A DNA stretch of 64,000 bases. Origin: a virus. Both the position numbers and the translations under genes were made by a program. Under the pieces are notes generated by a model that was not told where the DNA came from, searched no databases, and saw only the letters and a program-made list of their open reading frames with translations. Numbering within the stretch: the first letter of the stretch is position 1; the number at the start of each line of letters is the position of its first letter. Shown here one piece after another: positions 6,092 through 64,000 of the stretch. The DNA is taken from the IMG/VR virus record IMGVR_UViG_3300045988_152944. One strand, written 5' to 3'.

Positions 6092-7774
6092 TTAATCGAT
6101 ATTTACCGTAGCTGAGCCACAGTCAAACACGAACACTACCGAATCGTCAATTTCGACTTTCGGAGCAACAGCAGCGGTGCCAGTCACTTTCAAACCAACT
6201 CCGGCGCTAACATTAGTAACGGTACCAACTTTGTCTAGACCAGGTTTACCTTCAAGAGCAGTAATCTTATCTGCATAACCGTCGTAAGTGCTAACTTTTG
6301 CTTCAGTGATACCAGAGTTAACAGCGCCGAGTTGTGCAGTCGAAAGTTTATCTTGTTTACTTGTTGCATAACCGTCATACGTGCTAACTTTTGCTTCGGT
6401 AATACCAGAGTTGACTGCACTAAGTTGATCAGTGGTCAACTTGTCTTGTTTACCCGAAATGTCTTGGTGAGCGGTGATAACAGTACCAAGGTCAACAACA
6501 CCAGAAGCTGGATTCTTTGTTGTGCCGTTCATCTTAACAGCAGTAACAGTACCAGTTTTGTTCAAGCCAGGGAAGGCTGCTTCGGTAACGCCAACATCAT
6601 CAGCACTCAAGTTGATGTCACTTGAAAGCGCTTTATTGTTAATTTTTCTTGTGTTAGGCACATAACCAGAAAGGTCAATGTCTGTATTGCCAATACGCTC
6701 CCACTTATAAGTCGAACCTGACTCAACAGTTATAAATTCATCATAACTGTCGGGTTGTCCGTCGCTCGGATTGTGCGAGTGAGCCATAAGATAAATCTTG
6801 CCCATAGTCGCTTTTGCTGCTGTAGGCAATTCGGTAACAACCTGATATTCAAATTGTTTAACCGTGCTTATTGCGGTGTCCACATATTGTTTAGTCGCGG
6901 GATTCATTTCCGCCGTAGGCGCTTGAACTGTTACAGCACCAGTGAACGCACCACCCGCTTTAGGCATTGCGTCATCAGCTTTCGTACCTTGTGCCGCAGT
7001 TGCGTAAGCAGAACTTTCGGTATAAGCCGCACTCTTAAGACCTTTAACAGCAACATTGTCAGTAGCAGTACCATTAACAGTAATCTTTACTGTACCGTTG
7101 TTAGTACCGGACGCAAGAGTAACTGTTTGGTGACTCTGGAGAGCAGTGTCTGCTTTGCCCAATGACGTTTGGACCGCTTCTGCTAAATCTGCTTTGGGGA
7201 TTCCGCCAGCAGGTTTTGAATATTTACCATCTGCCGTAGATTGTGCAGCCTGTGCAGCAGATGCGGCAGCAGCAGCGTCATCAACACCTTTTTGAGCTTT
7301 AGTAAGCAGTGCAGCCCAACCTTTAACAACAGCGTCATCACCAACAGCCACACCGTTCTTTTTCAGAACAAGCGAGCCATCAGCAGCTCCAGTTTCAAGC
7401 GTAAACTCAGCCTGTGCCGGAAGAGCGCCGATTTGTTGATCTGTGTAGGCTTTAGCACTTTGCAACGCACCAGCGGCTGAGCCAGCACTATCAGCACCAA
7501 CTTCATTTGCGGTATAAGTTGGCTTGGTCGCCGCTTTGGCCCATCCGTAAACATCAGCAGCAAGACCACTCGCCCATGGGAGTTCGCTAAATTTGTGAAC
7601 ACCATCGCCCACCTTTAATAATACTGCAGGAGGCGTGGATTGTTCGGCAGTCTCACCAGTAGCCAATGAACAAATTGCGACTTCACCCTTTTTAAGGATA
7701 AATTCGGAAGCATTCCAATTGGCTAAAGTATCATATTTTAAAGCAATTCTTGTATTAAGTGTAGTAGTTGCCAT
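6092..7774 (-). CDS. tail fibre protein (560 aa), mosaic
   Basis: N-terminal ANW..KKGE..KVGDG anchor. The MPKAGGAFTGAVTVQAPT..NPATK.YVD module is shared with the 7796 gene. C-terminal modules are shared with the 3023 and 5170 genes. GGAGG RBS. Confidence 0.7.
   Translation of the reverse strand: MATTTLNTRIALKYDTLANWNASEFILKKGEVAICSLATGETAEQSTPPAVLLKVGDGVHKFSELPWASGLAADVYGWAKAATKPTYTANEVGADSAGSAAGALQSAKAYTDQQIGALPAQAEFTLETGAADGSLVLKKNGVAVGDDAVVKGWAALLTKAQKGVDDAAAAASAAQAAQSTADGKYSKPAGGIPKADLAEAVQTSLGKADTALQSHQTVTLASGTNNGTVKITVNGTATDNVAVKGLKSAAYTESSAYATAAQGTKADDAMPKAGGAFTGAVTVQAPTAEMNPATKQYVDTAISTVKQFEYQVVTELPTAAKATMGKIYLMAHSHNPSDGQPDSYDEFITVESGSTYKWERIGNTDIDLSGYVPNTRKINNKALSSDINLSADDVGVTEAAFPGLNKTGTVTAVKMNGTTKNPASGVVDLGTVITAHQDISGKQDKLTTDQLSAVNSGITEAKVSTYDGYATSKQDKLSTAQLGAVNSGITEAKVSTYDGYADKITALEGKPGLDKVGTVTNVSAGVGLKVTGTAAVAPKVEIDDSVVFVFDCGSATVNID
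6273..6458 (-). repeat. in-frame 93-bp tandem duplication inside the fibre gene
   Basis: Two 93-bp units (6273 and 6366) encode QDKL(T/S)..QL.AVNSGITEAKVSTYDGYA twice. Confidence 0.85.
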
Positions 7775-9511: not shown

Positions 9512-10777
9512 TTATGCTACGGTGAAATGCCACTTGTTCGCTTTGTCGCAAGCTGCAGCATTATCTTTGTAATATACGTTATACGACTTAGCCTCATAGC
9601 CATTCGCACCTTCTACATCCACAGTAATGTGGGTAAATGCGCTGAATGCTTCTGCGTTCAGTCCGTTAACGTCTTTGATTGAATTGATAGTTCTCGGTGC
9701 AGGGACAGCTATGATAACACGCATGTCACCAACAGCCTCTTGAGCATCGCCCGTATTGCCCGCTGAGATTGCTCCATTTCTCTTACCAGCCAAACCTCTG
9801 ATAATCGCACTCGTGGGCGTGCCTTCTTTAGATTTGACACCACCCCAGAAACTGTTTCTATAACCAGTAATAGCACTCGAAGCAGCGCTCTTTGTGCCAG
9901 CCGCAATTTTACCAGCTACGCCCTCAGTCGCACCAAGGTTGTTTTTAGGATCGGCACCGGCCGTGTGTGTAGCAACAACACTGACCTTATAACTGGTACT
10001 GTCACCAACTGTAAACTGAGCAAACGAACCCGTTTCTGTAGTAGCCGTATGCGAATCTGTATCGCTGACCTCATAGGTCGCTGTAATACCCGTGTCTGGA
10101 CCATATTGATAGCTACCTTTGTTAAAAGCCACTGAGTACGCAGGAGTGAATTCGCTACCAACCTCCTTTGCGCCGGCACCGGTTAAACTAATAGACACTG
10201 ACGGTTGGTTTACTGTAGGATTATTGTTAGCTTTTGCGAGCGCTCCTTTTAAGAATTCTTCTACAGACTTACCACTTGCGGGCAGCACAACCGAACCGGA
10301 TGCACCAGGAGCATAAATACCAAACGCTGTGGTTGCTGTGATATCATCTTTAAAATATACATTGCCTGCGTCGTAATTGCCATCCATGGCTTCCCAGTTG
10401 GTCTCGCCGCGTACATATGCAGTATACTGATATTTGCCACCAACCAACGCTTCCCTGATGATCGCAATGTCACCTTTAACAGGCTCTGCAATTTCAGCAA
10501 GCGCTGCCGCTTTGTCACCACCCAACGCGATGTCTTTCTGATAAACATCGGTAGTATGCAAATTTTTGGTAGCATCACCGATTGCTTTTTCGACGGCTGC
10601 CAAATCTACAAATGAAACGGTAATTTCGCTCCAAGTTTTGGTGCCATCGCCAACTTTGAAAATGTGTAAATCGGTATCATAACCAACTTCACCTTTCTTC
10701 AAAACAAGCTTGGAAGCAGCCCAATTGGTGCTGGTGTCATTACGTAAAATTAAAGTAATACGTATTTGTTTCTCCAT
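9512..10777 (-). CDS. tail fibre-like protein (421 aa)
   Basis: N-terminal TNW..KKGE..KVGDGTKTW anchor. Its ATG lies inside the 3' tail of the IscB ORF and has no obvious RBS. Confidence 0.55.
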   Translation of the reverse strand: MEKQIRITLILRNDTSTNWAASKLVLKKGEVGYDTDLHIFKVGDGTKTWSEITVSFVDLAAVEKAIGDATKNLHTTDVYQKDIALGGDKAAALAEIAEPVKGDIAIIREALVGGKYQYTAYVRGETNWEAMDGNYDAGNVYFKDDITATTAFGIYAPGASGSVVLPASGKSVEEFLKGALAKANNNPTVNQPSVSISLTGAGAKEVGSEFTPAYSVAFNKGSYQYGPDTGITATYEVSDTDSHTATTETGSFAQFTVGDSTSYKVSVVATHTAGADPKNNLGATEGVAGKIAAGTKSAASSAITGYRNSFWGGVKSKEGTPTSAIIRGLAGKRNGAISAGNTGDAQEAVGDMRVIIAVPAPRTINSIKDVNGLNAEAFSAFTHITVDVEGANGYEAKSYNVYYKDNAAACDKANKWHFTVA

Positions 10778-12054
10778 AAAATTTTCGGCAAAGGCCCCGC
10801 ATCCCCTTCAGGGGTGTGGGGGAATTGCCTCCTCCTTTCTATTAGTTTTGTTGAATTGTGTCTAATCCTTTTAAGGTTCTTATAACTTATTGAACCATTG
10901 TTTACCTTTTCTCCGTCTAAATTTCTGATATCTAAAAATCCTGATTTGCGTCTACCAAAAATCACATATTGTTTATTTTGATATTCTACCGTATCAAATA
11001 AGTCAAACCCAAAAACGTTGCCAATTAGTTGATTATTCTTTTTATATCCACCCTTTGAAAAATTATTTTTATGGATTTGTCTACTCTGCCTTCTAACACA
11101 CTTTTGATAAATATAATAATCTAAAGACTTCGCCTTTGGATTACCACTTATACACCGAGCATCTATGTAGTGTGCTTTCGGCAGATTATTTTCAATACGA
11201 GTGTTTTTAGTTATATAGCCATATGTTTCGTGGACATTTGAATATAACGCACATAATCTGTCAAATAGCGTCTTACACATAATCCCCATAAACGCAGCAT
11301 CTCGATAACTTTTACCACGTTTGAACTTTAATTCAACTTCGCCCTTGTGATAAGCTTTATGACAAGTTTCGCACAAGGTAATTAAATTATTCGGTGCATT
11401 GCCACCTGCTTTACGACTTTCAATATGATGTACATTTAATACATTATCTTTTGATTTACCGTGGCAACATTGGCATTCGTGGTGATCGCGGAATAATACA
11501 TAGGCTCTCACATTCCAGAAACCTAATTGCTCGCCCTGTTGATATTCTTTTCCCGATATTTCGGGATTGTTTATCTTCTGGATATCGAATTGAGCGGTTT
11601 CGACAATAAGTTTAGTTATCGGTAAAATCGCATACAAGCGTTTTATAACTTGAATATGCGAATTTATCTTTTGTTCAACACTTGGAGCAAGCCATCCTTT
11701 GTGTTTTGAATAAACACGATTGTTAAATCTTGCAGGGCGATATCTCAACCGGTTTCTTCTCGTTCTTCTTGCTTCTCTACGAGATGATAGTTTATTTACA
11801 ATATCATTACGCAATTCGACATCAGCTTCATATAGCACTTGTTTGTCCGTTGTGGCAGAAACACCAATATGCTTACTTCCGACATCAATTCCAAGATTCA
11901 CTTCTTGTGTTTGATTTTCACAATCGAATAATAACTGAATTGTAAACGGTTCGTATTTTACTATTTTTGCTTTATTTTGTTTTAGCAATTTTCTTGCTTT
12001 TGCTTCTTTGCAAGGCATTAATGGTTTGCCTTGTTTGTTTAATACATATACCAT
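10750..12054 (-). CDS. iscB: IscB RNA-guided nuclease (434 aa)
   Basis: N-terminal PLMP motif (GKPLMPC), RuvC-I GIDVGSKHIG, Arg-rich bridge helix RREARRTRRNRLRYR, HNH (VHHIESRKAGGNAPNNLITLCETCH), RuvC-III AHYIDA. Confidence 0.85.
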   Translation of the reverse strand: MVYVLNKQGKPLMPCKEAKARKLLKQNKAKIVKYEPFTIQLLFDCENQTQEVNLGIDVGSKHIGVSATTDKQVLYEADVELRNDIVNKLSSRREARRTRRNRLRYRPARFNNRVYSKHKGWLAPSVEQKINSHIQVIKRLYAILPITKLIVETAQFDIQKINNPEISGKEYQQGEQLGFWNVRAYVLFRDHHECQCCHGKSKDNVLNVHHIESRKAGGNAPNNLITLCETCHKAYHKGEVELKFKRGKSYRDAAFMGIMCKTLFDRLCALYSNVHETYGYITKNTRIENNLPKAHYIDARCISGNPKAKSLDYYIYQKCVRRQSRQIHKNNFSKGGYKKNNQLIGNVFGFDLFDTVEYQNKQYVIFGRRKSGFLDIRNLDGEKVNNGSISYKNLKRIRHNSTKLIERRRQFPHTPEGDAGPLPKILWRNKYVLL

Positions 12055-12320
12055 TGCTTTTATAGCCTCCTATATGTTAGAGTGGTTACTCCACGACAAT
12101 GTTATTCAAAGGTTTTACGTATGCAACACTGTTCCTACCCATCAGAACTGTTTAATCACATACCGCAGAGCGTAAGACTGGAGAGTACATCCTACAGTGC
12201 CTATATATTCTTTGATAACGTAGTGCTCGAAGCACTGAGTCTGATCAACTAGTGAGCTTGAAGCCCACGCCTATTTATGGGCTGGGTAGTTGACAAAAAC
12301 TCCTTTTGAAAATAAATTCG
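12055..12320 (-). ncRNA. candidate IscB omega-RNA (guide plus scaffold)
   Basis: 266-nt ORF-free, relatively GC-rich spacer directly 5' of iscB on the same strand, where IscB omega-RNAs are encoded. Local stems are present, e.g. AGTGCT-TCG-AGCACT. The fold was not verified. Confidence 0.55.
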
Positions 12321-30999: not shown

Positions 31000-31230
31000 C
31001 TAGATAGTTCATTGAACTTCTCACGACTAAAGTCGTGAGATTCTTGGGAACTTCCGACCACTGCCGGAATATTTACCAAGCTAACCCCGTCGTCCCAACG
31101 GTTGTTTATATTTAGGCTAATTGTTTAAGCCCTTCATTAAGAATATTTATCGCCGCATTAACATCTCTATCATGATGAGTGTGACAAACGGGGCAATCCC
31201 ATTCTCTGACTTTTAGGTCTTTTGTCTCAG
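31000..31230 (-). ncRNA. candidate TnpB omega/reRNA (overlaps the tnpB 3' end; bounds approximate)
   Basis: Downstream of the stop: perfect hairpin CTCACGAC-TTTA-GTCGTGAG (31020-31039) plus TTCCG..CGGAA and CCGT..ACGG stems, in the position expected for the right-end guide RNA scaffold. Confidence 0.5.
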
Positions 31231-32209
31231 TGTTCTTATATCCACAAACGCTACAAGTCTGCGAACTCGGGAAGAATTTGTCAACTTTAATAACCATTCT
31301 TCCATACCAACGTGCTTTATACTCCAACTCTCTTACAAATTCTGACCAAGAAACATCATTGATTGCTTGCGCGAGTTTGTGATTTTTAACCATATTTTTT
31401 ATTTGCAAATCTTCAAGACAAATCACATCATTTTCTCGAATGATAACTGTTGAGAGTTTTTGTAGAAAATCTTTACGTTGATTTGAAATTTTCTCATGCA
31501 ATCTCGCGACTTTTATTCTTGCTTTGTTACGGTTAGAACCATCTTTTGATTTTCGAGATAATTCTTTTTGTAACTTTGCAAGTTTATTTAACGAGTTTTT
31601 GAGATATTTCGGATTATTGACAACCTCACCATCGCTCGTGATACAAAACTCTTTAAGACCCAGGTCTATGCCGACCACATTGTTTGTAATCGGCAATGGT
31701 TGTATATCCACATCCACACAGCACAACGAAACGTAGTATTTTCCGCTGGGCTCTTGTGAAACCGTCGCGTTTACTATTCTACCTTGTGGTACCAACTTGT
31801 TTTTCGTTTTTACCAATCCAAGTTTTGGAAGTTGAATGTAACCGCCAAGATATTTTATGGTGCCATTCCTATATTTAGAGTTGTAAGAATATTTATGAGT
31901 TTTCTTACTTTTGAAATTTGGAAACCCAGCGTGTTCTTTAAAGAACTTTTTATAAGCATTGTCTAAATCTTTGAGAGAAGATTGAAGAGCAGTGGAATCA
32001 ACTTCTGTAAGCCATTCAAGTTCAGCTTTTAGTTTAGTCATCGCTTTCGAACATTGAACGTAAGTTATATTTTTCTTTTCGGTTTTATATAATTCAATCT
32101 TTTCAGCAAGATACTTGTTATATACAAATCGGCAACAACCAAATGTTTTTGCAATTATTTCTTTCTGCTTTTCGTTTGGATATATACGATATTTATAAGA
32201 TTTTTCCAC
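31112..32209 (-). CDS. tnpB: TnpB RNA-guided endonuclease (365 aa)
   Basis: N-terminus YKYRIYPN..Q, RuvC D (GIDLG) and E (VICLEDL), zinc finger [25 protein letters not shown] start with AAAGGAGG RBS. Confidence 0.9.
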
Positions 32210-34870: not shown

Positions 34871-35190
34871 CTTTACACCCTCGGTTTCCCGATATTTCTT
34901 AGGGGAGTAGATTATCTCATCAACTCATTTCCTGTTACCGTAGTGAGCTGCTCAGCGCTTTGAATGTTGGAGTTTCACCAACACCCTACTCTACTTGCTT
35001 ACTTTCAAACATATTTCTTGTTTGATACGCGTTCGATAATCGTTACACTTTCCTTATTAAAGGCTTAGCACGGTGTTCCCTACGCAGGTTCACCGTTAGC
35101 AGGATTTCATCCCACACCTTGGATTTCCAAGTTCACTGAGTTATCATTCGATTGTCACCAACCGACGGACCCTGTATACGTTAAGTCACT
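34871..35190 (-). other. group I-like self-splicing intron, ORF-less (320 nt)
   Basis: Stop-filled insert. The 5' exon ends in U (35191) and the intron ends in G (34871). Exon CCGAU can pair with intron GUCGG about 25 nt in (P1). Other stems: UCGG-GAAA-CCGA tetraloop hairpin, CUUGG-AAAU-CCAAG, GUUGG..CCAAC. Confidence 0.6.
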
Positions 35191-36825
35191 ATCGGAGTGT
35201 CGTAATGTTGAAGTATCATATATACTGTAAATGATTCCACTCTTAATATATTGATACCAATAGTCCATATCTTCGGACGATACTACTTTACAAGGGTTGT
35301 GTTCGTGCGAATCAATCATCGGGCTTCGGCACAGGTCAACACAACCCACACTTCGCTGCCTCCAGAAATTTGAATACACTTGGTCAGGCCCAATTAACCC
35401 CACCGGTTCCAACCCAAGCGCCGATTGACACTGTGCCACGGGATCAGAAATCATAAAACTATAATTTCCTCTCACCCATATCTTACCAATCTTCGCCTTG
35501 TTTATCGTCTCAGCAATATTGCGATATATTTTCTTCTGTACATGAGCGTCTTCCAACATTATCGGGTTTTTAATAATAGCCCTCAACGCCGTGCTTTGCG
35601 CCCCATTATACAATTCTTTAAAACTGACTTGTTCACCCTTGCAACCCAACATATACAACATTGTATACAATTGGTCACCTGAACAAATCTTTTTAATCCA
35701 ATCAATTGTCGGTTGAATCAATTCCAGAATATCATCCTTATTGATATCCAACACTTGCAGATATTGATAATTGGCCAGCACATATTCGTCATCGTACTTT
35801 TTATTATATCTCGCAACTCCCCACTGAATACCAGCCGCATCTACATACTTTTGATATTCATACCAAGATACATAATATTTATACATCTTGAATTGAGATT
35901 CACTCAATATAACGTCAATATCCTCCAACCTATGTGAAATTCCCCACCGGTCACGAATTGAATCAATACCGTGTTCAGCTCCAAACTCTCGAAAATCAAA
36001 CGGGACCAAACACCCCTTCACAAAAACGCTACGAACAACGAACGACGACGGCGTATACGATAAATTCATATCTTCTGCCCACAGTGCCGCAAACTTAGGA
36101 TCGACCAATCCCTGTCCATCAGCGCAATTCAACTCGATGTCCATAGTTCTTTCTTTAATCTGCTTCTTCCCGGTCTCAGGATTAGGGCAAATCCAATCCA
36201 CCTGTTGGTCCTTCACCACATTAAAGAAATCCTTAACAACACACACTCTCGGCGTCCTCACCCACATAACACTCGAAAACGCCAACGCAAAATACGCATG
36301 ATATTTCGCCAAATTCATTTCTGAAATCTTGGTGTCCAACCCGCACATCAGATTTTTATACAGGGTGTCATAAAGAGCTTCATTAATAAAGGTAATAGTG
36401 TTGCGCCTCATTTGTCCCGAACCACAACAAAACCTCACATAATGAATACCGTTAACGTCAAATCCGTTCTTGGCCAATTCTTTATATTCTTTTTTGGTCA
36501 CGACTTCAACGTTAACAATATCTTTAACAAACAACGCATCTGTCAAAAACCGATTAAGAATACCAGCTTCTTTGGTTCGTCCTTCTCTCTTCGCAGCTCT
36601 GATAGCGCGACGAAATTGTTGGACATCGTTAAAAATCTCTCGATGACTTCTGGTATCATTATAATATTTTCTGATTTGTTGAAAAACCAGATTATCACCA
36701 ATTGATACCAGTGCCCCATCGCGAGCTGCCTTAGATTTTGAATAATTAACTATATTTAAGTTGTTCTCTACAATAAAACTAGATTTAAGTTTAAAAACTT
36801 GATATAGGTTTTGTAAATTAGGCAC
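35191..36825 (-). CDS. YonO-like single-subunit RNA polymerase, exon 1
   Basis: Ends ...CRSPMIDSHEHNPCKVV...STLRHSD, resembling the R.P...H...P / S.DxDGD region of YonO and eukaryotic RdRP-type two-barrel polymerases. GTG start 2 nt after the upstream stop. Confidence 0.6.
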
Positions 36826-37984: not shown

Positions 37985-38006
37985 AGAAAGAGGATATTCT
38001 CTTTCT
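37985..38006 (-). promoter_or_regulatory. 5'-leader hairpin between P1 and the first left-arm gene
   Basis: Perfect AGAAAGAG-N6-CTCTTTCT. Confidence 0.4.
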
Positions 38007-38021
38007 TCTTATTATATTTAT

Positions 38022-38050
38022 ATTATAACACATATCATATTTAATATCAA
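38022..38050 (-). promoter_or_regulatory. sigma-70/sigma-A type promoter P1 (leftward)
   Basis: TTGATA-17 nt-TATAAT on the minus strand. Confidence 0.7.
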
Positions 38051-38108
38051 CCTATGATGACATTTTTATAAAATTTTTAACATTTTTTAATTTTTCTGTC
38101 ATTGTAGG

Positions 38109-38137
38109 TTGACTTTTCTTTTCAAAGTTGTTATAAT
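38109..38137 (+). promoter_or_regulatory. consensus promoter P2 (rightward)
   Basis: TTGACT-17 nt-TATAAT. Confidence 0.75.
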
Positions 38138-38139
38138 TT

Positions 38140-38291
38140 GGGTGGTGGGCGGGTATAGATAAGAAGATCTTTTTTATTTATATATAAATATATAATATAT
38201 ATTCTATAATTATAACATATAATATGTTAAATATATATTAAAATATAATATAATAAAAAATAGTGATCTCATTCTCCCGACCACCCACCCC
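38140..38291. repeat. G-box / AT-core / C-box element between convergent promoters
   Basis: GGGTGGTGGGCGGG (38140-38153) and CCCGACCACCCACCCC (38276-38291) are imperfect inverted repeats. They bracket ~120 bp of almost pure A/T. Confidence 0.7.
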
Positions 38292-38292
38292 T

Positions 38293-38321
38293 ATTATACA
38301 CAGAAAAATACCATTTGTCAA
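38293..38321 (-). promoter_or_regulatory. consensus promoter P3 (leftward)
   Basis: TTGACA-17 nt-TATAAT on the minus strand. Confidence 0.75.
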
Positions 38322-38421
38322 CTACCAATGACAGAAAATACAAAAAAATAAAAAAATATTTTCCACAAAGCAAAACTACCACGCATGCTCACAGAATCTT
38401 AAAGAATTATGTCATCTACGG

Positions 38422-38450
38422 TTGACTTTTGTTGGCACATAGTGTATAAT
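38422..38450 (+). promoter_or_regulatory. consensus promoter P4 (rightward, early arm)
   Basis: TTGACT-17 nt-TATAAT. Confidence 0.8.
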
Positions 38451-41008: not shown

Positions 41009-41109
41009 TTTATGAATATTTTTGTCCATAAGTGTGTAAAAAGTTGAATTTTACATTGTAAAAAGTGTAAATTCGACTTTATACATAATAATATAAGGAG
41101 GTAGAAGAT

Positions 41110-43517: not shown

Positions 43518-44009
43518 ATGTCTATTAAAATCAATCAAATTGCAGCAACCGCCAACATCATCAACGCTCTCGATGCAATGAAAGCAGACGAGAACATCAG
43601 CCTCGGCATCGAAGAAATCGAGTTTCCTGATGGAAGCAAAGAGAAATTCTATTACAACGGCGAGTCCGACAAACAAGCAGCCGTGCACTTCGCACAGATT
43701 TGCATCGATGTTTGCGCCGGCGACAGCGACAAAGCCAAACGTATGATGGCTTCGTGTTTCAAACTTCTCACTAAAGGCTACAATGTCGACGAAATTGTCC
43801 CGTCTGCGGAAAGCGAAATCAACACCGAAACTTATATTGATTATAAGAAAGGTGTCTTGCTCACGCCGTACGCGTCGGTTGTCGCGTCTCTCACCGAGGA
43901 TGAACTCAAAGCAACAAAGGGCAAAAAGAATCCCCTTACCAAATCACTCTTGCTCGAAAGATCGAGAACTGATTGTTTAGAAGACGCTCTTAAATATTAC
44001 GAGAGCTGA
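43518..44009 (+). CDS. hypothetical early protein (163 aa)
   Basis: AAAGGAGG RBS. Confidence 0.65.
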   Translation: MSIKINQIAATANIINALDAMKADENISLGIEEIEFPDGSKEKFYYNGESDKQAAVHFAQICIDVCAGDSDKAKRMMASCFKLLTKGYNVDEIVPSAESEINTETYIDYKKGVLLTPYASVVASLTEDELKATKGKKNPLTKSLLLERSRTDCLEDALKYYES

Positions 44010-44156
44010 ACCCCGCAAGGCCCGCACGAAAGTGTGAACGGCGCAAGCCCGTTGCCCTCTTAGGAGGGTGGCGCTCATGGTGTTCATAATGGCATCATCT
44101 TCGTAAAATAAAAATCTTGCTAATCGAAGACTAATGGCATAGAAAGGAGAATCATT

Positions 44157-60849: not shown

Positions 60850-60912
60850 CTTTGTAAGTCCTTTTTTAGTTTATTTTAATATGTGTCGCCACATATCGTG
60901 TTTCTTCTATTC

Positions 60913-60934
60913 AGGAACCCCTATAGGGGTTCCT
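60913..60934. repeat. perfect 22-bp palindrome
   Basis: AGGAACCCC-TATA-GGGGTTCCT. Confidence 0.9.
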
Positions 60935-60935
60935 T

Positions 60936-61006
60936 GTATTACATGTATTACATATGACATATTGTATTACAGTATTACATGTAGTACAGTACTACAGTGT
61001 AGTACA
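60936..61006. repeat. array of ~8 short GTAnTACA units
   Basis: GTATTACA x4, then GTAGTACA, GTACTACA and GTAGTACA at 8-9 bp spacing, with one 11-nt interruption. Confidence 0.85.
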
Positions 61007-61019
61007 TATATGTTATATG

Positions 61020-61049
61020 GTCATATCAACTCTTTAGAGTTGATATGAC
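61020..61049. repeat. 13-bp perfect inverted repeat with a 4-nt loop
   Basis: GTCATATCAACTC-TTTA-GAGTTGATATGAC. Confidence 0.9.
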
Positions 61050-61117
61050 ATATGAAATATGAAATATTTGTTTTATGATATATTGAAATACTGATATACT
61101 GACATATGACATATAAT

Positions 61118-61186
61118 CACGTGCACGCGCATGCACATACACACGCATATACGCACGCCCGCACGCGCATGTATACATATGTGCAG
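61118..61186. repeat. alternating pyrimidine-purine (Z-DNA-prone) tract
   Basis: A 41-nt perfect Py-Pu alternation (CACGTGCACGCGCATGCACATACACACGCATATACGCACGC), a CCC break, then 27 more alternating nt. Confidence 0.85.
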
Positions 61187-61218
61187 AGTCTGGCTGTAAA
61201 TACAACCACGTCAAAACC

Positions 61219-61260
61219 GGCGGCGGACATCTCCCCGTCGCCTTTGGTTTGCCCGCCGCC
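61219..61260 (-). terminator. putative terminator after ssb
   Basis: GGCGGCGG..CCGCCGCC outer stem (alternative inner stem possible), followed by GGTTTT on the minus strand. Confidence 0.4.
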
Positions 61261-61635
61261 TTAAAACGGCAGTTCTTCGTAGTCCTCTGAGGATTCGGGC
61301 GTAACCTCGTCCGCCGCCACTTCAACAGAGTCGTCGTTGTTGGTTTCGTCTACCGGTCCACTACGTTGCTTAACCACGGTGAACGAAAACTTATTAGGTT
61401 CACCGGTTCCAGCGCCATTCAGGACGAGGTAGACATACCCGCCCCTTTGAAGATTGTGTTCGGCGTAAGTCGCTTGCCTACCCATGGCGACAACTTCGAT
61501 GCTGCACCATTTGCCGAAATCTTTACCAGTGCAGACAGTATAGGCCGCCGTCTTTACTTTGTTACCGCGAGCCAATTGCTTTTCGCCGATGGTGATATTG
61601 GTGATGATTTTCCCGAATACGGTCGTCTCAATCAT
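61261..61635 (-). CDS. ssb: single-stranded DNA-binding protein (124 aa)
   Basis: OB-fold-sized N-terminal domain and an acidic tail ending DYEELPF, matching the canonical SSB D-(D/E)-(L/I)-P-F tip; AGGAGGG RBS. Confidence 0.75.
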   Translation of the reverse strand: MIETTVFGKIITNITIGEKQLARGNKVKTAAYTVCTGKDFGKWCSIEVVAMGRQATYAEHNLQRGGYVYLVLNGAGTGEPNKFSFTVVKQRSGPVDETNNDDSVEVAADEVTPESSEDYEELPF

Positions 61636-61679
61636 TAGATTATCCCTCCTGTGGGGTGTTATTATTGTGCGGGGCTTTT

Positions 61680-62048
61680 TTACTTGGCCGCCGCCGCCGC
61701 TTTTTGTGCTGCCCTCATTGCTTTCATGCGTTCTGAGTTTGCGATACGTTGCTCTTCGGTCATAGTGCGGGTCACGCGGACACTTCTTAATGACAAAAAT
61801 TCCTTAGGTGCCTCAACCTCATACGCCACCGGCTGCCCATCATAAGTGGATATCGAGCGCAGGATATATTCTTCAGGACTCTTTGTCATTAATCCCCTGA
61901 GTTTGGTGACTATTGTGTTGTCACTGGTCCAGATGGTCATCTTGTCGCCGTTGCGTTCAAAAACGATCGAAGTCTCTTGTTCGTCCAAAGGGTTATTCGG
62001 GAAAGCGACCAAATCGTCAACCGTGTACGTCTTTTTTTGTTTAACCAT
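61680..62048 (-). CDS. hypothetical protein (122 aa)
   Basis: GGAGGT RBS downstream of a consensus promoter. Confidence 0.6.
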   Translation of the reverse strand: MVKQKKTYTVDDLVAFPNNPLDEQETSIVFERNGDKMTIWTSDNTIVTKLRGLMTKSPEEYILRSISTYDGQPVAYEVEAPKEFLSLRSVRVTRTMTEEQRIANSERMKAMRAAQKAAAAAK

Positions 62049-62082
62049 AAGCTAAACCTCCATTATTCTTTTTTATACTTCT

Positions 62083-62111
62083 ATTATACCACACGGCGGC
62101 GGGTATGTCAA
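62083..62111 (-). promoter_or_regulatory. consensus promoter
   Basis: TTGACA-17 nt-TATAAT on the minus strand. Confidence 0.75.
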
Positions 62112-62117
62112 CACAGG

Positions 62118-62147
62118 GTGACAAATACTTCTAACTTGTCGTATAAT
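62118..62147 (+). promoter_or_regulatory. back-to-back divergent promoter
   Basis: GTGACA-18 nt-TATAAT; its -35 is the other half of the TGTCA-N8-TGACA palindrome. Confidence 0.45.
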
Positions 62148-62296
62148 GAAGACACCTTATTCCACAAACGAAAATACCTCGGTCGATAAATCTGTCGACC
62201 AAACTCTTTTCTTTTACTACAGAGCTTAAATAAGCTCAAGAAAAACCAAAAAAGGGTATCTCAGACCATTTTCCCCCATCACGCGTCCGCCTACAC

Positions 62297-62325
62297 ACAA
62301 AAAATACCCAGGCTGCTATGCCTGG
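62297..62325 (-). terminator. rho-independent terminator
   Basis: CCAGGC-N6-GCCTGG followed by a T-run on the minus strand; 10 nt after the stop at 62335. Confidence 0.65.
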
Positions 62326-62334
62326 ATATCTTTC

Positions 62335-62763
62335 TTACTCTTCATCGTCCCATTCGTCGTCTTCTTCGTCCGCCAGCATAATCTGGCACTCGGGGCAGAT
62401 CTTGTTGTACATCGCCACCCATCCTTTCGGATTTCTCCATACCGTCCTGGTGGTCACGTCACACCAATGAGCGATGATGCCGACGACGGACTTGATCGCC
62501 TGGGGACGATCGTACTCGAATTTGAAGCACGGGCACTCACGAATGTTGTACTCCTCACCCAACGCCCCCTGATGCGTCTCATACTTGCTCCCTTCCACCG
62601 GGATGCCAGTCTTGAACTTCGAGCAGGAATGTTCTTTATTGTCGCGGGCGTTCATGCAAGACCAGCACAAGGTGTCTGTCTTCAGATTGTTGAAGAAGAT
62701 TCTGGCGTTGATGGCTTCGACTTCCGACTTGGTTAATTTGGTTGCTTTAATGACTCTGTTCAT
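62335..62763 (-). CDS. Cys-rich acidic-tailed protein, possible regulator (142 aa)
   Basis: AGGAGA RBS; CWSC..CSKF..CPCF..CPEC; C-terminus EEDDEWDDEE. Confidence 0.6.
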   Translation of the reverse strand: MNRVIKATKLTKSEVEAINARIFFNNLKTDTLCWSCMNARDNKEHSCSKFKTGIPVEGSKYETHQGALGEEYNIRECPCFKFEYDRPQAIKSVVGIIAHWCDVTTRTVWRNPKGWVAMYNKICPECQIMLADEEDDEWDDEE

Positions 62764-62793
62764 ATCACCGTCTCCTAATCTTTTTATACTTTA

Positions 62794-62822
62794 AGTATAA
62801 CATAGGTTCGACAGTTTGTCAA
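62794..62822 (-). promoter_or_regulatory. near-consensus promoter
   Basis: TTGACA-17 nt-TATACT on the minus strand. Confidence 0.7.
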
Positions 62823-63159
62823 CATATTTTTAGAAAAAAAAATAAATATTTTTCAAGAAAAAAATAGTGCAAAATTTTCCTATTCAATAGTGTAAAAATT
62901 TACCATCGGCGGCGGACATCTTTTTATGCGGCTGCGCCCGTTTTTTACCCGTTAGCACTGGTTTAGAAAACTGAACATATCGCTACCAAAACCGTCCTGG
63001 CGGAGCTGCATTTTTATAAAAAAACAGGGTATTTTGGGATATTTGTGAAGAAAATTGTAACACGATGTCGACGGCTGATGACGGTCGATGATGACGTAAT
63101 GTACCATAAACGGTACATAACTTTAGACAAAAATGACACCGTCCGCCGCCTGAAGTAGG

Positions 63160-63197
63160 ACAAAATATTCCTATTATAGAACAAAATATTCCTATTA
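63160..63197 (+). repeat. 17-mer direct repeat at 21-bp period
   Basis: ACAAAATATTCCTATTA x2; a degenerate third copy (AAAATTTTCCTATTCAA) near 62872. Confidence 0.8.
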
Positions 63198-63231
63198 AAA
63201 TGACAAAAAATTACCATCGATTTTGCGGCGA

Positions 63232-63261
63232 GTTGTCCACTTTTCCACATAGTTATCCACA
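63232..63261 (+). promoter_or_regulatory. DnaA-box cluster
   Basis: TTGTCCACT, TTTTCCACA and a perfect TTATCCACA in tandem direct orientation (consensus TTWTNCACA). Confidence 0.6.
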
Positions 63262-63407
63262 TCAAAAGTCACGTTTTCGATGCCTTTCGTTACCAAAATT
63301 GTATGGTTTTTTTAACGAGCGATGACGACGGATGATGCCAAAAGTATCAGTATACTGACACTATGTTTCGTAGAGTAATGTTTATTATAAGCGACAAATA
63401 ACCCTTT

Positions 63408-63429
63408 AATGTCACTTATAATTGACATT
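63408..63429. promoter_or_regulatory. perfect palindromic operator-like site
   Basis: AATGTCA-N8-TGACATT; the same TGTCA-N8-TGACA architecture as at six promoters. Confidence 0.6.
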
Positions 63430-63451
63430 ATAATGATACTGTAAGGTACTA

Positions 63452-63475
63452 AAATGACCCTATAAATGACCCTAT
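63452..63475 (+). repeat. tandem 12-mers
   Basis: AAATGACCCTAT x2, followed by degenerate copies AAAGTGCC and AAATGTCCCCC. Confidence 0.8.
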
Positions 63476-63567
63476 AAAGTGCCAAAATGTCCCCCTTTGA
63501 TGGCGTAAATGACGCTGAAAACGATCAAATTCCTGCGGTTTCTCTGTAAAGTTAGTACCCATTTTTG

Positions 63568-63624
63568 CTTGTGCAAAACTTGCACTCTTGTGTGCAAACT
63601 CGACTTTTTGTGTGCAAACTCGCG
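63568..63624 (+). repeat. three iteron-like direct repeats at 20-bp period
   Basis: CTTGTGCAAAACT, TTGTGTGCAAACTCG and TTGTGTGCAAACTCG. Confidence 0.8.
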
Positions 63625-63796
63625 TTACAAAGGAATCAAATAGGGTGTTGGTTTACGCCAAAAAAGGCACAAAATCGGATGCCTACAGCTGTTCACGTCC
63701 GCCGCCTACGTGTACCAACGTCTATCGCCTACGTGCAAATAAAGCATAAAAAATGAGCCAAATTGGTGCAGGTTTTACACTTTTCCAGACGATATT

Positions 63797-63824
63797 GGGG
63801 TGGTTTTTACACATTTTCCACCCC
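63797..63824. repeat. GGGGTGG / CCACCCC hairpin
   Basis: Perfect 7-bp stem, 14-nt loop; the arms resemble the G/C boxes of the promoter hub. Confidence 0.7.
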
Positions 63825-63906
63825 TTTAATTCCGTCGAATTCGACCAGTTTAACCGCCTCGATTTCGACACGGTGGCCCAAAGTGGTCAGCCGTCCCTAT
63901 TTTAAT

Positions 63907-63931
63907 AAAAAAAAGAGGCATCTCAGCCTCT
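63907..63931 (-). terminator. rho-independent terminator for a gene lying beyond the right edge
   Basis: AGAGGC-N6-GCCTCT followed by T8 on the minus strand. Confidence 0.6.
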
Positions 63932-64000
63932 CTCTCGCGCACGCATGTATATATACTATATATAATACGCTCACTTTTTCAGCGCGTTTTTAGCGATCCA

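Follow-up and report, generated by a model that had tools for sequence, protein, structure and literature searches.

What is the function of the gene-free, repeat-rich region at positions 62764-63935 of the virus sequence IMGVR_UViG_3300045988_152944 (IMG/VR)? All coordinates given here are those of the window, that is, of the whole 64,000-nt stretch that was analysed. An earlier note on this DNA had taken the region for a candidate replication origin of the iteron type. The single most likely reading, and one that we put forward tentatively, is that of a phage-specific origin or initiator-binding hub joined to early-gene control. We read the region as a composite cis-acting hub which, on the minus strand, consists of the terminator of a long replication and nucleotide-metabolism operon, a fast-evolving mosaic of short, putatively protein-binding repeats, a conserved core, and an A/T tract with a strong, host-type promoter. 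Core and A/T tract would together form the phage's own origin, or else an initiator-binding, ori-like site comparable to oriR of phage SPP1, where phage-encoded proteins would bind and recognise the core and load the phage's DnaB-like helicase for the origin to fire. The prime candidate for a binder of the core would be the 142-amino-acid (aa) product of the adjoining gene; boxes of the sequence GGCGGCGG would be operators tying early transcription to the core site, and a trio of DnaA-box-like sequences would be an optional accessory module and not the mechanism of initiation.

The region lies between two genes, both on the minus strand, and the claim that it is itself free of genes held: no credible open reading frame (ORF) was found, and none of at least 30 aa with a Shine-Dalgarno sequence exists in 62764-63935 at all. 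A hidden small gene was rejected on account of the lack of any ORF with a ribosome-binding site (RBS) together with frame-breaking indels, which occur all along the region in relatives and include 1-nt indels inside the conserved core. What the region does contain is repeats. Ranked by short-range direct repeats it is the top 1.1-kb window of the 64 kb, with 25 pairs of 9-mers per 1.1 kb as compared to a median of 1 and a 95th percentile of 10. Every motif listed in the earlier note (A/T tract, 17-mers, palindrome, operator, 12-mers, three iterons, hairpin) was found in the sequence, and several had been missed, namely two GTCGAA(A/T)TCGA palindromic repeats, two copies of ACGTC..GCCTACGTG, three GGCGGCGGAC boxes, a 7-6-7 palindrome and a direct repeat of about 50 bp.

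Comparison with related phages divides these motifs into two groups of very different fate. As close relatives we count 12 distinct sequences in which the flanking gene has about 91-97% DNA identity, and the side of the region next to the 142-aa gene (62764-63225) is 90-98% identical in them. Within it lies a conserved noncoding core of 345 bp (62881..63225), which holds the 17-mer ACAAAATATTCCTATTA at 63160-63176 and 63181-63197 (21-bp period; a degenerate copy is at 62870-62884), two inverted GGCGGCGGAC boxes (63141-63150 and 62908-62917), the 7-6-7 palindrome ATGTACC-N6-GGTACAT (63099-63118) and GTCATC-type repeats (63060-63095), and which is bracketed by the direct repeat of about 50 bp (62864-62917 and 63176-63230). 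The core has diverged by 1.7-3.2% as compared to 7-10.5% at the adjacent gene's third codon positions, and by 8-11% as compared to 15-21% in two farther relatives. It thus changes two to five times more slowly than third codon positions and is therefore under purifying selection. Moreover, palindrome and 17-mer are single-site elements that occur nowhere else in the roughly 100 kb of genome examined.

The other group makes up an indel-mosaic half (63321..63830). It contains the palindrome CAGTATACTG (63348-63357), AATGTCA-N8-TGACATT (63408-63429), two copies of the 12-mer AAATGACCCTAT (63452-63475), three copies of TGTGCAAA(A)CT at a 20-bp period (63570-63620), the two copies of ACGTC..GCCTACGTG (63695-63735) and a GTCCGCCGCC box (63697-63706). 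The aligned fraction of this half, determined for 11 of the close relatives, is 15-25% in eight of them and 61-79% in L003, L017 and L020, and its modules are present or absent in different combinations. Units of TGTGCAAACT together with the GGGGTGG/CCACCCC hairpin discussed below were found only in the window and in these same three relatives, and the AATGTCA palindrome is essentially confined to the window sequence.

The hub itself reaches much further than its individual repeats. In distant relatives, defined by homologues of the flanking gene at 55-61% aa identity (L010-L012 and L022-L029; lineage B) and supplemented by the more remote L069 and L070, a noncoding hub recurs at the equivalent position, as the comparison with related phages proposed in the earlier note was able to establish. 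The order is kept: upstream gene, 0.7-1.4 kb of noncoding repeat-rich DNA, A/T tract and TTGACA promoter, and a gene for a Zn/helix-turn-helix (HTH) protein. The tandem repeats in it, of three to four copies, are the lineage's own, such as three copies each of TGTGGTAGT and GAGGTAGAAAA in L011 and four of AAAATCGC in L069. Shared with the distant hubs are GGCGGCGG boxes (4-7 per region), the elements TGCACCAA.TGGCTCATTTTTT..TTATTTGCAC and CCGATTTTGT.CCTTTTTTGG, GACATTT repeats, and a stem-loop with the loop AAAATGTGTAAAAA. The half-sites of the palindrome co-vary (TGTACC..GGTACA, TGTCCC..GGTACA, TGTCCC..GGGACA). Finally, the block TGCACCAATTTGGCTCATTTTTT..TTATTTGCAC (63733..63774) is kept between lineages A and B and is 87-88% identical to L011 and L012 (blastn-short), although the flanking protein is only 55-58% identical.

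Both ends of the region are marked by transcription signals. At its start on the minus strand stands the intrinsic terminator of the upstream 160-aa gene (63907..63936), a hairpin of -16 kcal/mol followed by U8 that is kept in all close relatives; the gene itself has its stop codon at 63971-63973 and extends past the window end. Between stop codon and terminator lies a TATATATAGTATATATACATGCGTGCGCG tract (63937-63970) of alternating purines and pyrimidines that is Z-DNA-prone and kept between lineages (also in L011, 4600-4650). The terminator is followed by a conserved block (63831..63904; 94-97% identity to close relatives, 86% in L005), and the palindromic repeats GTCGAA(A/T)TCGA(C) are at 63834-63845 and 63859-63869. 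At the other end, the minus-strand sigma-A/sigma-70-type promoter TTGACA-17-TGtTATACT (62822..62794) matches 11 of 12 consensus positions, has an extended -10 and is invariant in relatives. Immediately upstream of its -35 hexamer lies the A/T tract (62823..62880, minus strand); at 15% GC over 80 bp (approximately 62823-62903) this is the second-lowest GC content in the window. Because it touches the -35 hexamer the tract fits an UP element, and it could also act as an unwinding element; in lineage B, L069 and L070 an A/T tract likewise stands ahead of the promoter. Similarity to other phages is confined to this promoter and A/T-tract end, which matches intergenic DNA of S. thermophilus phages, while the rest had no megablast or blastn match in GenBank phages or PLSDB plasmids. 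The leader of the 142-aa gene, AAGTATAAAAAG, and the RBS AGGAG (62776..62772) follow on the minus strand within 62764..62822. As A(A/G)AAGTATAAAAAG, the leader directly follows both early promoters between -10 and RBS (62773-62793 and 62060-62082, minus strand), and it resembles the GTGTAAAA motif that is repeated in the hub and at 41030-41070.

The 142-aa early gene (62335..62763, minus strand) is syntenic with the hub in lineages A and B, in L069 and in L070. In an alignment of homologues its product shows Zn-ribbon-like pairs of conserved Cys, a C-terminal half that is HTH-like, and an acidic tail; an AlphaFold2 (AF2) model is confident for residues 80-130 only. Profile searches, and AF2 in combination with Foldseek, revealed no relative in Pfam, PHROG or the PDB, and a scan against GTDB genomes gave no match. 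Among 1.8 billion proteins a profile search collected only 16 representatives of the family and no domain fusions, none to replication domains included. The 142-aa protein is the candidate binder of the hub.

Which phage would use such a site? The earlier note had seen no replisome genes in the window and had suggested that the phage may recruit host DnaA. This premise fails because it is a product of the window boundary alone. When the replication block was read by walking rightwards along a 95%-similar contig, it turned out to encode, all on the same strand, RNA ligase, PNK, NrdD/NrdG, Dam, ClpP, IscB, a RecD2 helicase and PolIII-alpha, and further on nucleases, a Toprim primase, a DnaB-like helicase and a Sak4-like ATPase; helicase, primase, PolIII-alpha, RecD2 and the Sak4-like protein are thus encoded just outside the window. 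PolIII-alpha is 39-41% identical to YorL of SPbeta, and the order of the replication genes is the yorF-yorL order. Because of the YorL-like polymerase, a YonO-type RNA polymerase and this gene order we regard the phage as a distant SPbeta-like phage with its own replisome. There is no close relative among GenBank phages; in human gut metagenomes there are many related contigs of 130-145 kb, and 306 sequences make up the 142-aa protein's 90% cluster, the two most widespread of them occurring on 440 and 478 contigs. Judged by these relatives and by its genes, the phage is a prevalent human-gut phage of about 140 kb that is distantly SPbeta-like. The single-chain RNA polymerase (556 aa; 35155-36825, minus strand; Pfam RdRP match, 28.6% identity to SPbeta YonO) is encoded near the 5' end of the minus-strand block of virion genes; a clostridial host is hinted at by its relatives, which are found in Enterocloster, Clostridium (c-st), Thomasclavelia and Bacillus phages. 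As for the ssb gene that had been placed about 1.5 kb from the region, its product is probably a divergent protein binding single-stranded DNA (an SSB) with an acidic ..DYEELPF tail, but the Pfam SSB match, seen in five of six homologues, stays below threshold; the AF2 model is unusable (predicted local distance difference test, pLDDT, 41) and no PDB match was obtained.

With the phage supplying its own helicase, primase and PolIII-alpha, the mechanism of the earlier note, a DnaA-dependent iteron origin at which the box cluster recruits host DnaA to open the A/T tract, loses much of its appeal. It does draw on a group of sequences on the plus strand (63233..63261), where TTGTCCACT (63233-63241), TTTTCCACA (63241-63249) and a perfect TTATCCACA (63253-63261) lie within 29 bp. 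The perfect box was correctly called and TTTTCCACA has one mismatch, but TTGTCCACT has two mismatches and not one, and the TTTTCCA(C/G) sequences at 63781 and 63814, which had been listed as further variants, are part of another conserved motif, TGGAAAA(T)GTGTAAAA. In those relatives that have the trio the boxes vary only at position 3, which is A, G or T (TTATCCACA, TTGTCCACA, TTTTCCACA), and some add a fourth, inverted box, TTATCAACA; such a pattern would fit real DnaA binding. However, the trio is missing from each of the 11 distant relatives and from four of the 12 distinct close ones, its module being deleted in L004/L014 and L021 and replaced in L017 and L020. With their CCAC cores 8 and 12 bp apart, the boxes lack helical phasing; they lie about 330 bp from the A/T tract; and no DnaA-trio repeats (three or more TA[G/A]) exist in 62764-63935 on either strand. 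Nor need the TGTGG repeat be a DnaA box, because L011 carries the array of three TGTGGTAGT units. On this pattern DnaA can be no more than an optional accessory, and we consider opening of the A/T tract by recruited host DnaA highly improbable.

Why then would we still consider this an origin? The candidate origin of the earlier note survives without its host-DnaA mechanism, as a unique repeat-dense site beside an A/T tract whose position is kept and whose core is under selection. It has the densest repeats of the window next to the second most AT-rich 80 bp, and its palindrome and 17-mer are confined to one site, as expected of an ori-type site and unlike dispersed operators. The same architecture is found across lineages with lineage-specific tandem repeats, and a DNA-binding-like gene adjoins it. 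No other noncoding gap of more than 434 bp was found in the 34 kb of replication genes examined, and no iteron cluster in the 10 kb surrounding the genes for helicase and primase. The origins of SPP1 offer a precedent (PMC6316719). Moreover, transcription control alone appears insufficient to account for the region, because there is no other sigma-A-type promoter inside its 1-kb body.

Several observations weigh against this view. Neither the flanking genes nor the replication module were found to contain a Rep/O/gp38-like family or a recognisable initiator. Between phages of about 96% identity half of the region is dispensable, and with it three of the iteron families cited in the earlier note. 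Copies per repeat family are few, at two to three, a number just as typical of operator arrays. The A/T tract directly adjoins the -35 hexamer and doubles as an UP element. A closer homologue of the 142-aa gene (L009, 79% identity) stands in another context without such an upstream region. The site lies 2-3 kb from a convergent gene boundary and from the cumulative GC-skew maximum, and not at a divergence point, so that bidirectional forks starting from it would meet most genes head-on. GC skew was discarded as an origin marker, as it merely tracks the direction of transcription. Lastly, there is a strong rival site at 38.0-38.45 kb with the lowest GC content of the window, convergent promoters, G-rich inverted boxes and a skew minimum.

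This rival candidate for the origin or for pac deserves a closer description. Within 38000-38450 two near-consensus sigma-A promoters face each other (38109-38137 on the plus and 38321..38293 on the minus strand), and a G-rich box comes after either of them, GGGTGGTGGGCGGG in one case and the inverted counterpart CCCGACCACCCACCCC in the other, with a TA-only core of 4% GC in between. In relatives promoters and boxes are invariant, the TA core reaches up to about 220 bp, and four IMG/VR contigs end there. The site coincides with the divergence point of gene orientation and the cumulative GC-skew minimum. It also corresponds in position to pac of SPbeta and by this analogy could be pac instead (bioRxiv 10.1101/2021.11.22.469490). 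A second unusual stretch follows the SSB-like gene (60860-61260): it is of low complexity and contains runs that alternate between purine and pyrimidine (CATGCGCGTGCG...) along with CATATG/GTATTAC repeats and a palindromic terminator. Its counterpart in one relative has 844 bp at 20% GC, and it breaks assemblies, with at least 10 independent contigs of both lineages ending inside it; L011 ends in Nextera adapter sequence. The idea that the TA-rich sequences at 38.2 kb and 61.0 kb are inverted copies that delimit an invertible early block was rejected, as they share no similarity.

The uniqueness of the site and its location near the convergent boundary would also fit another single-copy site of DNA transaction, be it a fork-arrest or theta-to-sigma switch site, a centromere-like partition site or a packaging-related site, or an entry and anchoring site that uses DnaA boxes in the manner of T5 iss. 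Precedents exist, as T5 iss is an untranslated stretch rich in repeats, palindromes and DnaA boxes that was proposed not to be an origin (bioRxiv 10.1101/866236), and oriR of SPP1 has been proposed to stall forks (PMC6316719). On the other hand, there is no sign of terminal repeats, and long contigs start at differing positions as they do for permuted or circular assemblies; by analogy with SPbeta a pac site is expected beside the yonO-like gene near 38 kb (bioRxiv 10.1101/2021.11.22.469490); no ParA/ParB genes were seen in about 100 kb; and the DnaA boxes are few and not conserved. A function of this kind therefore strikes us as distinctly unlikely.

A more serious contender, though still a somewhat unlikely one in our estimate, is that the region serves transcription control only and has no role in replication. 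It would then be a cluster of operators, comprising the GGCGGCGG boxes, the palindrome and the short tandem sites, through which phage regulators would switch the early monocistronic genes (142-aa, phrog_1709, SSB-like) in the way of SPBRE/MrpR or of OL/OR arrays. Most suggestive in this respect are the boxes. The exact 8-mer GGCGGCGG occurs 14 times in the window, eight of these in 61219-63706; the 10-mer GTCCGCCGCC, with one mismatch allowed, gives 10 matches as compared to 1.0 expected; and in a 45-kb composite 11 of 12 copies fall in the hub region or the next 5 kb. In three settings a GGCGGCGG/CCGCCGCC box sits inside the spacer of a sigma-A promoter, namely at 62111..62083, ahead of the lineage B homologue of the 142-aa gene, and in L070; the first of these is the promoter of the next early gene (62083..62111, minus strand), with the CCGCCGCC box inside the spacer TTGACAtaccCGCCGCCgtgtggTATAAT. 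The GGCGGCGG boxes thus look like putative operators. Furthermore, modules of like composition (a G-rich block and GTGTAAAA repeats) precede another small early gene at 40.9-41.1 kb, groups of two or three sites at a spacing of 20-24 bp are typical of operators, and the 15-bp repressor element of SPbeta is dispersed in about 10 promoter regions (PMC10516654). Pure transcription control, however, leaves unexplained why there is one promoter in 1.1 kb and why most sites lie 300-1000 bp upstream of it, why palindrome and 17-mer are unique and not dispersed, and why selection acts on 345 contiguous bp, a length beyond the usual needs of operators. Right after the stop codon of the SSB-like gene an inverted GGCGGCGG pair (61219-61260) forms an 11-bp GC-rich stem followed by GGUUUU, no better than shuffled sequence (z -1.3); the box may be part of a terminator there and an operator elsewhere. 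The window proteins include a match to Pfam PF00589 (tyrosine-recombinase-like).

Does the region act as RNA? It might encode a long structured leader or at least one noncoding RNA, with a stem-loop of conserved loop acting at the RNA level. The stem-loop in question is the GGGGTGG/CCACCCC hairpin at 63797-63824 (minus strand; -13.2 kcal/mol, z -3.4), of which the A-rich loop AAAATGTGTAAAAA is conserved while the stem differs by lineage: with GGGGTGG/CCACCCC in lineage A and GTTAGG/CCTAAC in lineage B, four base pairs are changed on both sides, and L003/L020 have a G-T (G-U) wobble. In the stem alignment 88% of cells are paired as compared to at most 49% in slid controls. The stem-loop is missing from five close relatives; it is followed by a second TGGAAAAGTGTAAAAC copy (63772-63788). 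On either strand the core, too, has a better fold than shuffled sequence (z -2.6 and -3.3). Then again, none of the 67 predicted core pairs covaries (RNAalifold) and several substitutions break pairs, and the palindrome loses its hairpin complementarity in lineage B (TGTCCC..GGTACA). No Rfam 15 family matched at the gathering threshold, the best E-values in a search to E 1 being 0.12-0.65 and far below gathering, and the region has no internal promoter and a strong terminator at its start. We therefore regard a function as RNA as improbable; the hairpin appears to be the only element with support as a structure, resting on one lineage split. An internal terminator at 63665-63684 was dismissed, as it is no better than shuffles and not conserved as a hairpin.

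How does the hub compare with known systems? The origins of SPP1 combine direct repeats with an AT-rich unwinding element, and its oriR is intergenic and bracketed by transcription signals (PMC6316719). Like the gp38-bound oriL and oriR, the hub has direct repeats beside an AT-rich stretch, a phage-supplied DnaB-type helicase and bracketing by transcription signals; oriR is placed away from the initiator gene, and SPP1 too has a Firmicute as host (PMC6316719). Different from SPP1, however, the hub is about three times longer, contains many different repeat families and is to one half an indel mosaic, and there is neither sequence similarity nor did we find a gp38/gp39 homologue. T5 iss is described as a large untranslated region with repeats, inverted repeats, palindromes and DnaA boxes and an oriC-like look (bioRxiv 10.1101/866236), and in its richness in these elements the hub resembles it. 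T5, however, has eight DnaA boxes in a fixed arrangement that is conserved in 25 phages and located in the long terminal repeat, whereas here there are three non-conserved boxes, no terminal-repeat boundary was seen, and the lineage is unrelated. The 15-bp SPBRE, bound by the MrpR repressor in about 10 promoter regions of SPbeta (PMC10516654), is, like the GGCGGCGG box, a short repeated element that an SPbeta-type genome carries in its early promoter regions, but the box is a GC-rich 8-10-mer concentrated in 6 kb whereas SPBRE is dispersed.

Origins of the P1 oriR type, known from plasmids and plasmid prophages, combine tandem repeats whose period is about 21 bp with DnaA boxes and an AT-rich segment. 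All three are found in the hub as well, which differs in that it has no Rep gene, only two to three copies per repeat family, DnaA boxes that are optional, and no PLSDB match.

SPbeta-type phages stand out by an unusual single-chain RNA polymerase and PolIII-alpha, and their replication is unstudied and the origin unknown (PMC8270828). The present work provides a defined and unique noncoding site under selection, a candidate binding protein, and natural variants without individual modules, which together make the start of replication and the use of host DnaA directly testable. Its value is moderate in that repeat-rich origins or regulatory hubs of phages are a familiar class; the lineage is prevalent in the gut. 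A more daring version, which we offer as speculative and think unlikely, is a modular origin plus switch: the core would be recognised by a new Zn-ribbon/HTH protein, the GGCGGCGG boxes would couple it to early transcription, and the DnaA trio and the lineage's iterons would be swapped as cassettes among phages that are nearly identical. If so, the dependence of initiation on host factors would be a rapidly exchangeable trait in a prevalent gut phage lineage.

Some observations on the remainder of the genome may be added. A gene for a GIY-YIG endonuclease splits the anaerobic ribonucleotide reductase NrdD in a relative's replication block (L032, 2887-5811), and in the region 51-3594 of L045 PolIII-alpha is encoded by two overlapping ORFs (795 aa from the ATG in L046, and 535 aa), whereas yorL of SPbeta is a single gene. 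The same replication block of L045 contains a second IscB gene (6223-7353); in the window, RRXRR and HNH matches fall in one ORF, and a HEARO (IscB omega-type) RNA (12082-12294, minus strand; 133 bits) adjoins an IscB-sized ORF (10750-12054, minus strand). A TnpB gene (OrfB_IS605/Cas12f-like TNB; 31112-32209, minus strand) lies inside the structural block, and a further copy adjoins the hub in a distant relative (L012, 2497-3624). Finally, a twister-sister ribozyme match (44008-44087, plus strand; 64 bits, E 3e-12) is located between two ORFs of the early block, just upstream of a PcfJ-like cluster.

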